Part shown: positions 45,828 to 48,408 of the stretch, piece after piece | Layout of the letters: each line of letters starts with the position of its first letter | Position numbering within the stretch: position 1 is the first letter of the stretch | NCBI RefSeq assembly: GCF_013315695.1 | Contig: NZ_CP054353.1 | From: Escherichia coli | GTDB lineage: Bacteria; Pseudomonadota; Gammaproteobacteria; Enterobacterales; Enterobacteriaceae | DNA length: 64,000 nt | Direction: 5' to 3' (one strand) | Translations under genes and position numbers: made by a program | The notes under the pieces: model-generated | Databases searched by the model: none | The model's input: only the letters and a program-made list of their open reading frames with translations | Told to the model about the DNA's origin: nothing

Positions 45828-47372
45828 ATGGCTGACTCGCAACCCCTGTCCGGTACCCCGGAAGGTGCCGAATATTTAAGAGCGGTGCTGCGCGCGCCGG
45901 TCTACGAAGCGGCGCAGGTCACGCCGCTACAAAAAATGGAAAAGATCTCGTCTCGTCTTGATAACGTGATTCTGGTGAAACGCGAAGATCGCCAGCCAGT
46001 TCATAGCTTTAAGCTGCGCGGTGCATACGCCATGATGGCGGGCCTGACGGAAGAACAAAAAGCGCACGGCGTGATAACCGCTTCCGCGGGTAACCACGCG
46101 CAGGGCGTCGCGTTTTCTTCCGCACGGTTAGGCGTGAAGGCGCTGATCGTCATGCCAACCGCCACCGCCGATATCAAAGTTGATGCGGTGCGCGGCTTTG
46201 GCGGCGAAGTGTTGCTTCATGGCGCGAACTTTGACGAAGCAAAAGCGAAAGCGATCGAACTGTCACAGCAGCAGGGCTTCACCTGGGTGCCACCGTTCGA
46301 CCACCCGATGGTGATCGCCGGGCAAGGCACGCTGGCGCTGGAACTGCTCCAGCAGGATGCCCATCTTGACCGCGTGTTTGTGCCGGTCGGCGGCGGCGGT
46401 CTGGCGGCGGGTGTGGCGGTGCTGATCAAACAACTGATGCCGCAAATCAAAGTGATCGCCGTGGAAGCGGAAGACTCCGCCTGCCTGAAAGCAGCGCTGG
46501 ATGCGGGTCATCCCGTTGATTTGCCACGCGTGGGACTGTTCGCAGAAGGCGTTGCGGTAAAACGCATCGGCGACGAAACCTTCCGTTTATGCCAGGAGTA
46601 TCTCGACGACATCATCACCGTCGATAGTGATGCGATCTGTGCGGCGATGAAGGATTTATTCGAAGATGTGCGCGCGGTGGCGGAACCCTCTGGCGCGCTG
46701 GCGCTGGCGGGAATGAAAAAATACATCGCCCAGCACAACATTCGCGGCGAACGGCTGGCGCATATTCTTTCCGGTGCCAACGTGAACTTTCACGGTCTGC
46801 GCTACGTCTCGGAACGCTGCGAACTGGGCGAACAGCGTGAAGCGTTACTGGCGGTGACCATTCCGGAAGAAAAGGGCAGCTTCCTCAAATTCTGCCAACT
46901 GCTTGGCGGGCGTTCGGTCACCGAGTTCAACTACCGTTTTGCCGATGCCAAAAACGCCTGCATCTTTGTCGGCGTGCGCTTAAGCCGTGGCCTCGAAGAG
47001 CGCAAAGAAATTTTGCAGATGCTCAACGACGGTGGCTACAGCGTGGTTGATCTCTCCGACGACGAAATGGCGAAGCTGCATGTGCGCTATATGGTTGGCG
47101 GGCGTCCATCGCATCCGTTGCAGGAACGCCTCTACAGTTTCGAATTCCCGGAATCACCGGGCGCGCTGCTGCGCTTCCTCAACACGCTGGGTACGCACTG
47201 GAACATTTCTTTGTTCCATTATCGCAGCCACGGTACCGACTATGGGCGCGTACTGGCGGCGTTCGAGCTTGGCGATCATGAACCGGATTTTGAAACCCGG
47301 CTGAATGAACTGGGTTACGATTGCCACGACGAAACCCATAACCCGGCGTTCAGGTTCTTTTTGGCGGGTTAG
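45828..47372 (+). CDS. ilvA: Threonine deaminase IlvA, 514 aa
   Basis: ORF track; PLP-binding region (HSFKLRGA). Confidence 0.96.
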   Translation: MADSQPLSGTPEGAEYLRAVLRAPVYEAAQVTPLQKMEKISSRLDNVILVKREDRQPVHSFKLRGAYAMMAGLTEEQKAHGVITASAGNHAQGVAFSSARLGVKALIVMPTATADIKVDAVRGFGGEVLLHGANFDEAKAKAIELSQQQGFTWVPPFDHPMVIAGQGTLALELLQQDAHLDRVFVPVGGGGLAAGVAVLIKQLMPQIKVIAVEAEDSACLKAALDAGHPVDLPRVGLFAEGVAVKRIGDETFRLCQEYLDDIITVDSDAICAAMKDLFEDVRAVAEPSGALALAGMKKYIAQHNIRGERLAHILSGANVNFHGLRYVSERCELGEQREALLAVTIPEEKGSFLKFCQLLGGRSVTEFNYRFADAKNACIFVGVRLSRGLEERKEILQMLNDGGYSVVDLSDDEMAKLHVRYMVGGRPSHPLQERLYSFEFPESPGALLRFLNTLGTHWNISLFHYRSHGTDYGRVLAAFELGDHEPDFETRLNELGYDCHDETHNPAFRFFLAG

Positions 47373-48259
47373 TGGTTCGGCAAAATCTTCCAGAACGCCT
47401 CAATCAGCGGCTCATGAAGCCGCTTTTTTTGTACGCACACGCCCAGCTCAAACGGCGTTTTCTCATCGCTACGCTCCAGAATCATTACGCGGTTGCGCAC
47501 GGGTTCCGGGCTGTTTTCCAGCACCACCTCTGGTAGCAGCGCCACGCCGCAGCCGAGCGCCACCATCGATACCATTGCTTCATGCCCGCCAACCGTGGCG
47601 TAAATCATTGGGTTGCTGATTTTGTTGCGTCGAAACCACAGTTCAATGCGGCGGCGTACCGGTCCCTGATCGGCCATGATAAACGGCACTGTAGACCAGT
47701 CGGGCTTTTCGACAGATACCTGATTACGCACCGGGCAGGGCAGCGCGGGAGCAATCAGCACCACCGCCAGATTCTCCAGCATCGAAAACGCCACTGCGCC
47801 CGGCAAGGTTTCCGGTTTCCCGGCAATCGCCAGATCCGCTTCGCCAGTGACGACCTTTTCCATCGCATCTGCCGCATCACCAGTCGTGAGTTTAATCTCC
47901 ACCGACGGGTGTTCCGCGCGGAAGCGATCGAGAATCGGCGGCAGATGGCTGTAGGCAGCGGTCACCGAGCAGAAGATATGTAATTCGCCAGAGAGCGACG
48001 GTCCTTGCTGATCGATGGTGTGGCGCAGCTGTTGATACTGCAACAGCGTTTGCTGGGCGAAAACGCGCAGTTCTTCGCCAGCTTCGGTTAGCGTTACCGT
48101 GCGGTTATCGCGCACAAACAGCGGCTGACCGAGATCGTCTTCCAGGCGCTGAATCTGCCGAGAGAGCGTGGACGGGCTAACGTGCATTGCCCGCGCGCTG
48201 CGGCCAAAATGGCGGCTTTCCGCCAGATGCAGGAAGGTTTTCAGATCGCGTAAATCCAA
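47369..48259 (-). CDS. ilvY: LysR-family activator IlvY, about 296 aa, apparent TTG start
   Basis: ORF track 47369..48343; conserved N-terminus (M)[39 protein letters not shown] aligns to a TTG codon at 48257..48259; start uncertain. Confidence 0.85.
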
Positions 48260-48408
48260 TGGCGCAGCCCTTAATGTTGACGTTGCAGAAATTGCAATGT
48301 GACGTTGTGAATATATCAATTTCCGCAATAAATTTCCTGTCATATAGTGAATTCAATCTCGCAAACGCGAACCGAACAATAAGAAGCACAACATCACGAG
48401 GAATCACC

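Follow-up and report, generated by a model that had tools for sequence, protein, structure and literature searches.

The LysR-type activator gene ilvY, in the 64,000-nucleotide stretch of Escherichia coli DNA that we analyzed (from contig NZ_CP054353.1, hereafter the window), is very well supported as being translated from a UUG codon at positions 48259-48257 of the minus strand, with annotation, family profiles, comparison between species and promoter geometry all agreeing on this codon. We consider it probable that this UUG start goes together with low translation per transcript, with buffering of IlvY levels by autorepression, and with a start codon that is only weakly selected. The TTG start is correct, ordinary and already annotated (RefSeq gives TTG for the majority of E. 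coli, and K-12 has GTG), i.e., a non-ATG ilvY start is present in reference annotation and the feature is therefore already known, and its biological importance is small. What our analysis adds is modest: that K-12 carries the minority codon, that the start appears to have passed through a series from ATG to GTG to TTG, and that an open upstream frame misleads some gene callers. The features of this locus are as follows.

45828..47372, plus strand: ilvA, convergent with ilvY, from the open reading frame list and PGAP; the stop codons of the two genes overlap by 4 nt (47369-47372)
47369..48259, minus strand: ilvY coding sequence, encoding the LysR-type activator of ilvC, 296 amino acids plus a TAA stop (47371-47369)
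48185..48187, minus strand: next in-frame ATG (Met25), from the sequence, within the HTH domain
48257..48259, minus strand: ilvY initiation codon TTG, from sequence, annotation and comparison
48268..48273, minus strand: putative Shine-Dalgarno-like UAAGGG, from the sequence, 8 nt upstream of the TTG
48280..48300: IlvY operator O1 (autorepression site), acattgcaatttctgcaacgt, matching the published O1 ACgTTGCAAaaaTTGCAAtGT at 20 of 21 positions
48303..48315, minus strand: candidate ilvY -10-like TATATT (48315-48310) and probable transcription start (~48306-48303), from O1 geometry and sequence
48311..48331: IlvY operator O2, over the ilvY -10/-35 and the ilvC -35, matching the published O2 aTATatCaatttccGcaATAa at 21 of 21 positions
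48341..48343, minus strand: upstream in-frame ATG that opens a mechanical 324-aa open reading frame, not the start, ~37 nt upstream of the probable transcription start
48409..49884, plus strand: ilvC, encoding ketol-acid reductoisomerase, the divergently transcribed target of IlvY, from the open reading frame list and PGAP, with a 149-bp intergenic region to ilvY

By every criterion that could be tested, i.e., LysR HTH and substrate domains, an equivalog score above the cut-off, and a divergent ilvC with tandem O1/O2 operators, the gene in the window is IlvY. The Pfam HTH_1 domain is found at residues 3-62 (E = 4.9e-23, profile positions 1-60 of 60) and LysR_substrate at residues 89-293 (E = 1.6e-37), and against the NCBIfam IlvY equivalog NF008722 the protein reaches 513.5 bits (cut-off 246), with residues 1-295 aligned to positions 1-292 of the 293 in the profile. 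The predicted protein is 99% identical to K-12 IlvY. The ilvY gene of K-12 MG1655 (b3773, NP_418221.1) resembles that of the window in being divergent from ilvC, convergent with ilvA and annotated with a non-ATG start at the same codon, and the operators of the two are closely matched (O2 identical, O1 20/21). The start contexts differ, with gagggctgtccct GTG GAT TTA in K-12 versus taagggctgcgcca TTG in the window. K-12 also has a ~55-bp REP-like insert after the gene, which adds a C-terminal Lys (297 aa, versus 296 aa in the window) and keeps apart the stop codons of ilvY and ilvA, which overlap in the window. We rejected the idea that high divergence is limited to ilvY, as ilvD, ilvA, ilvY and ilvC in the window are all 92-96% identical to K-12. 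Import of the window ilvY from E. albertii, suggested by a near-identical stretch of 30 nt ahead of the start, was also rejected: nucleotide identity of the coding sequence is only 90.2% with E. albertii, against 93.3% with K-12.

Around the start of the gene, the minus strand of the window reads caacattaagggctgcgcca TTG GAT TTA CGC GAT CTG AAA ACC TTC, and its translation gives DLRDLKTF... directly after the TTG at 48259-48257. The sequence-only reading had placed this TTG in frame before the conserved IlvY N-terminus, and window sequence, annotation, profiles, comparison and promoter position all bear this out, as does a comparison with reference annotation. For example, in NZ_LR898874.1 (E. 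coli MSB1_4I), which is 99.98% identical to the window, PGAP starts ilvY at locus 1662, equivalent to window position 48259, so that the annotated gene begins at the same TTG and maps exactly to 47369..48259. In six further E. coli genomes that we sampled, with differing start-region haplotypes, the PGAP start is at the same codon, and the curated annotation of K-12 b3773 also starts at this codon position, but with GTG. Position 1 of the NCBIfam equivalog profile aligns to residue 1 of the TTG-started product. Comparison across 88 other species (80 Enterobacteriaceae species and eight outgroup genera) demonstrated that the codon aligned to the window TTG is ATG, GTG or TTG in all 88, and a canonical start in every one of these species argues that the match is not due to chance. 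Initiation at this UUG would yield an N-terminus reading (f)Met-Asp-Leu-Arg-Asp-Leu-Lys, the standard one. Our literature search turned up no N-terminal sequence, initiation profiling or reporter measurement for ilvY or IlvY, and no paper dealing with its translation start; a paper on Salmonella ilvY suppressors does not address translation, ilvY is absent from the TRAINSPOTTER N-terminomics supplements, and the PDB holds no IlvY structure.

The geometry of the promoter agrees with a start at the TTG. In the part of PMC5002191 that cites the K-12 work of Wek & Hatfield 1988, the centre of O1 is put at +17 relative to the start of ilvY transcription, and O2 over the ilvY -10/-35. Since O1 is centred at +17, transcription in the window would start at ~48306-48303, just downstream of the TATATT at 48315-48310. 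We infer an ilvY leader of ~45-47 nt, with the transcription start within the O2/O1 region, a position taken from a secondary account of K-12 work. A generic promoter scan of the ilvY-ilvC intergenic region found nothing at its thresholds.

Two other positions have to be weighed as the true start of ilvY, namely the ATG at 48343, which would give a 324-aa protein, and the downstream Met25. The frame is open from 48343 both in the window and in K-12, and the resulting mechanical open reading frame (47369..48343) is 28 codons longer than ilvY and has further in-frame TTGs at 48328 and 48319. Some automated gene callers do choose this ATG, misled by the open frame into the 324-aa product, as is evident from a cluster of such predictions (P0002, 755 members) among those derived from ENA. 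However, the published transcription start is downstream of the ATG at 48343 and of both these TTGs, all of which are located within the ilvY promoter and O2 or ahead of them, so that none of the three would be present in the mRNA. The N-terminal extension from 48343 is also interrupted by stops in most species, with a stop codon 1-6 codons upstream of the true start in ~50 of the 80 Enterobacteriaceae species, and the same pattern of a near upstream stop followed by a canonical start in the eight more distant genera; in a Pfam domain search, the 28-residue extension itself matched no profile. Downstream of the TTG, the window sequence contains no in-frame ATG, GTG or TTG before Met25. The sequence-only reading had stated that this next ATG would remove part of the HTH, and this proved to be so: as HTH_1 spans residues 3-62, a start at Met25 would delete 22 of its 60 positions. 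PGAP and the curated K-12 annotation both take the TTG/GTG codon rather than either alternative, and we regard a start at 48343 or Met25 as very improbable. Still less credible, although K-12 has GTG at the ilvY start, is that the TTG of this strain came from a GTG start by sequencing error or by a mutation that disabled it. The ilvY reading frame is intact, with the product nearly identical to that of K-12, and the exact TTG haplotype of the window is found both in some thousands of complete E. coli genomes and in E. albertii, which effectively refutes a reading as error or mutation.

The frequency of this haplotype was determined using short queries centred on the ilvY start codon, run against 5,345 records of complete E. 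coli genomes. The TTG haplotype (GGGCTGCGCCA-TTG-GAT...) has an exact match in ~3,300 of these records (~62%), and the K-12 GTG haplotype in ~1,860 (~35%), with the remaining few per cent including TTG-AAT (a D2N variant) and an intermediate gcgcct-GTG. TTG is therefore the majority ilvY start codon in E. coli, and the K-12 reference carries the minority one. This distribution rejects the view, suggested by our census of species, that TTG is a rare, strain-specific derived allele. Because K-12 has the minority codon, annotation transfer from this strain, and the design of ilvY-ilvC cassettes, should take note that most E. coli have TTG in a different Shine-Dalgarno and spacer context.

In our species census, 80 Enterobacteriaceae species were fetched with the IlvY protein and their start codons aligned, giving GTG in 65, ATG in 14 and TTG in one (E. 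albertii). The species with ATG are those of Kosakonia, Phytobacter, Pluralibacter and a few others. All eight outgroup genera, i.e., Cronobacter, Shimwellia, Cedecea and Buttiauxella, and Erwinia, Mixta, Pantoea and Winslowiella of the Erwiniaceae, have ATG with the same ilvC-ilvY-ilvA synteny, so that ATG occurs in 22 of the 88 other species overall. Parsimony on the ilvY gene tree, rooted with Erwiniaceae, places ATG at the root, one change from ATG to GTG under 75 taxa, changes from GTG to TTG in Escherichia alleles, and at least four independent reversions from GTG to ATG, with these counts being approximate since the tree is that of a single, evidently recombining gene. These findings suggest that ATG was ancestral, that GTG arose in the core Enterobacteriaceae, and that TTG arose within Escherichia. 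The G at the first base of the start codon has a conservation of 0.81 (81% of species), which is matched or exceeded by 21% of the four-fold synonymous sites in ilvY (four-fold mean 68%), i.e., the weak codon is not conserved among orthologues beyond neutral expectation. Outgroup ATGs, parsimony count and synonymous-site comparison together led us to reject deep conservation of a weak ilvY start. Codons 2-7 (GAT TTA CGC GAT CTG AAA) form the most synonymously conserved run of the gene, with a mean of 0.94 versus a gene mean of 0.72, and with the TTA present in 79 of 79.

The start codon and the sequence ahead of it suggest that initiation of ilvY in the window is weak. The duplex between UAAGGG and the 3′ end of 16S rRNA has a predicted energy of -4.9 kcal/mol, versus -6.4 for the GAGGG of K-12, and is weaker than the mean predicted for both the GTG species (-7.5 kcal/mol) and the ATG species (-6.0 kcal/mol). 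In the TTG haplotypes, the Shine-Dalgarno is not stronger, and does not compensate for the start codon. The window allele thus combines the weakest codon and the weakest Shine-Dalgarno of the set we compared, from which low translation of ilvY per transcript can reasonably be inferred. Folding of the leader and first codons gave structures less stable than their shuffles (z = +1.3; K-12 +0.9), and so no sign that the Shine-Dalgarno or start is sequestered; mRNA structure hiding either was rejected on this basis. GcvB as a post-transcriptional regulator at the start of ilvY was also set aside, as the source paper names ilvY only in passing.

A reason why such a weak start is tolerated is suggested by the circuit in which ilvY sits. 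According to the literature on the K-12 system, IlvY represses its own promoter via O1 independently of inducer, and its activation of ilvC is inducer dependent. Given this negative feedback, a fall in the efficiency of ilvY translation would be partly offset by derepressed ilvY transcription, and buffering of this kind would relax selection on the start codon, leaving the codon free to drift or to stay polymorphic. Autorepression buffering would therefore explain repeated codon change, two high-frequency forms in E. coli, and a first base of unexceptional conservation. On this circuit logic, a near-neutral start codon is likely the more economical reading than deliberate weakness.

Deliberate weakness was the proposal of the sequence-only reading, in which a weak start on an autoregulated activator limits its level. 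In an extended form, UUG (GUG in K-12) would have been selected to keep IlvY scarce per transcript, one possible rationale being that a poor start would allow high ilvY transcription, and so supercoiling-driven activation of ilvC, without an excess of IlvY; we judge this to be unlikely, although several of our results are in line with it. Initiation at GUG and UUG is weaker than at AUG (10-100% of AUG as a group; Hecht et al.), and PMC4469952, on Rhee 1999 and Opel & Hatfield 2001, describes the ilvY promoter as strong, with its transcription activating the weak ilvC promoter via supercoiling. Start codon switches run mostly towards AUG (GUG to AUG 0.040; GUG to UUG 0.007; AUG to GUG 0.006; Belinky et al.), and ilvY took both of the rare steps, but its lineages have also returned to ATG repeatedly. 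The GTG start persists over many genera, yet ATG serves in every outgroup genus and in a minority of Enterobacteriaceae species with the same gene order. The lack of a stronger Shine-Dalgarno in the TTG haplotypes, and the synonymous conservation of codons 2-7, suggest an initiation region that is tuned or constrained; against this, the first base of the start codon is conserved no more than many synonymous sites, and TTG and GTG are both frequent within E. coli. A tally of start codons among the 53 annotated genes of the window points to an enrichment of non-ATG starts in regulators, at 4 of 6 transcription-factor genes versus 4 of 47 others (Fisher p = 0.003), from a small sample in which regulator class was assigned post hoc. 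Two steps away from AUG, no Shine-Dalgarno compensation and regulator enrichment would also fit selection for weak initiation, and the earlier proposal is plausible but only partly supported. ATG relatives, reversions, unexceptional conservation and polymorphism argue against it, and IlvY therefore does not have weak initiation as a design feature kept by conservation.

A stronger form of the same idea takes the weakening from ATG to GTG to TTG, and the TTG/GTG polymorphism of E. coli, as products of adaptive tuning and not of drift, with the strength of the start codon setting circuit gain; this appears to us quite improbable. If it were true, less IlvY per transcript would make the strong, autorepressed ilvY promoter fire more often, and divergent ilvC would become more responsive via supercoiling, so that E. 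coli lineages would differ in the gain of their transcription-coupled ilvY-ilvC circuit. With its series of ATG, GTG and TTG starts, ilvY offers a handy natural experiment, on a small scale, on the buffering of start-codon strength by negative autoregulation, a modest question and not a long-standing one.

The non-ATG regulator starts annotated in the window are those of ilvY (TTG), rbsR (TTG), hdfR (GTG) and dnaA (GTG). Like ilvY, the products of rbsR, hdfR (itself of the LysR family) and dnaA are DNA-binding, low-abundance regulators; unlike ilvY, they belong to other families and circuits, and their non-ATG starts are as annotated. In function, the nearest parallel is the adenylate cyclase gene cya of E. 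coli, also a low-abundance regulatory gene with a UUG start and the classical example of a weak codon that limits expression, in which changing UUG to GUG or AUG raises expression, according to the title of Reddy et al. 1985 as listed in PMC5622118. In cya, unlike ilvY, the effect of the codon was measured by mutagenesis, and there is no divergent LysR-type autorepression loop; read as a selected limiter of the cya type, ilvY falls short on conservation. A second point of comparison is infC (IF3), like ilvY an autoregulated gene that does not start on AUG. Its autoregulation is translational: IF3 discriminates against the abnormal start codon of infC, which thereby serves as the sensor. Autoregulation of ilvY is by contrast transcriptional, via O1, and nothing suggests that its start codon acts as a sensor. 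The two genes also differ in the codon itself, with UUG being a canonical start and infC named as having a confirmed AUU start (Hecht et al.).

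We tallied the start codons of the 53 annotated CDS in the window and found 45 ATG, five GTG and three TTG. The genes with non-ATG starts were as follows.

DNA-binding regulators: ilvY (TTG; window 47369..48259, - strand), rbsR (TTG), hdfR (GTG) and dnaA (GTG)
Other genes: wecA, wecB, a PemK/MazF-family toxin gene and the IS4 transposase gene

Non-ATG starts are therefore present in four of six transcription-factor genes vs 4 of the remaining 47 genes (Fisher p = 0.003), a comparison based on small numbers and a post hoc classification.

Comparison of ilvY across 80 species of Enterobacteriaceae demonstrated that the codons immediately following the start, codons 2–7 (GAT TTA CGC GAT CTG AAA; window 48256–48239), are near-invariant at synonymous positions. 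The majority third-position base in these codons has a frequency of 0.94, compared to a mean of 0.72 for the gene, with the rare Leu codon TTA present in 79 of 79 sequences, and no other run of ilvY codons shows synonymous conservation as high. This implies a constraint at the beginning of the coding region that would act at the nucleotide level. Three E. coli strains, M11957, DG341-1 and A287, carry TTG AAT in place of TTG GAT at the ilvY start, resulting in an Asp2-to-Asn change in IlvY (WP_001053418.1), and these alleles are accompanied by a variant SD, either tgaggg or tgagga.

The ilvY frame is also open for 31 codons 5′ of the true start (window 48260–48343), with an ATG at the head of this extension. 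Among ENA-derived protein predictions, a cluster of 324-aa “IlvY” proteins contains 755 member sequences, and the 297-aa cluster contains 7,405; the 324-aa protein is a repeated automated mis-call of the ilvY start. Within the IlvY autorepression operator O1 (window 48280–48300), the window reads TTGCAG-AAA-TTGCAA on the ilvC-sense strand, differing by a single base from the symmetric TTGCAA-AAA-TTGCAA of K-12, and the form present in the window is common to many other species.

At its 3′ end, ilvY converges on ilvA, with the ilvY stop codon (TAA, - strand) and the ilvA stop codon (TAG, + strand) sharing a 4-nt overlap (TTAG, window 47369–47372). K-12, where convergent ilvA/ilvY termination was the subject of Sameshima et al. 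1989, differs at this junction in containing a REP-like hairpin insert of ~55 bp, with an extra C-terminal Lys on IlvY. By a very rough estimate, 20% of E. coli, strain 042 among them, have the junction without the insert, and since this form is also present in Cronobacter, Cedecea and Buttiauxella, the insert-free arrangement is probably ancestral.

The region from about 44990 to 49240, containing the 3′ end of ilvD, ilvA, ilvY and the 5′ part of ilvC, shows just 92–96% identity to K-12, despite an IlvY protein that is 99% identical; outside this stretch, the window is 95–99% identical to most E. coli. Matches of at least 99% to the ilvY region occurred in only 5 of 5,431 records, and 4,438 records matched at 90–95%. 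The ilvY alleles of E. coli differ by 7–10%, approximately the same as E. coli vs E. albertii. Together these values suggest that the ilv locus has old, recombining allele classes.

Collinearity between the window and the near-identical RefSeq genome MSB1_4I is broken at window 20238–21800, a region containing the following feature.

20304..21650, + strand, IS4 transposase open reading frame; kup is next, from 21809

Window positions 1–20235 correspond to 1–20235 of the MSB1_4I record, and from 20238 onwards the window matches the reverse complement of this record, descending from 5,226,758. MSB1_4I contains two inverted IS4 copies exactly at these breakpoints, one interrupting a GntR-family regulator gene and the other located between kup and ravA, which points either to an inversion, between the two IS4 copies, of the ~72-kb segment containing dnaA and oriC in the window genome, or to an alternative assembly.

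In the annotation of the near-identical genome, an IS1A insertion (11654–12351) splits the galactonate dehydratase gene dgoD (window 10633–12558), and the D-galactonate pathway is therefore probably inactive in this strain.
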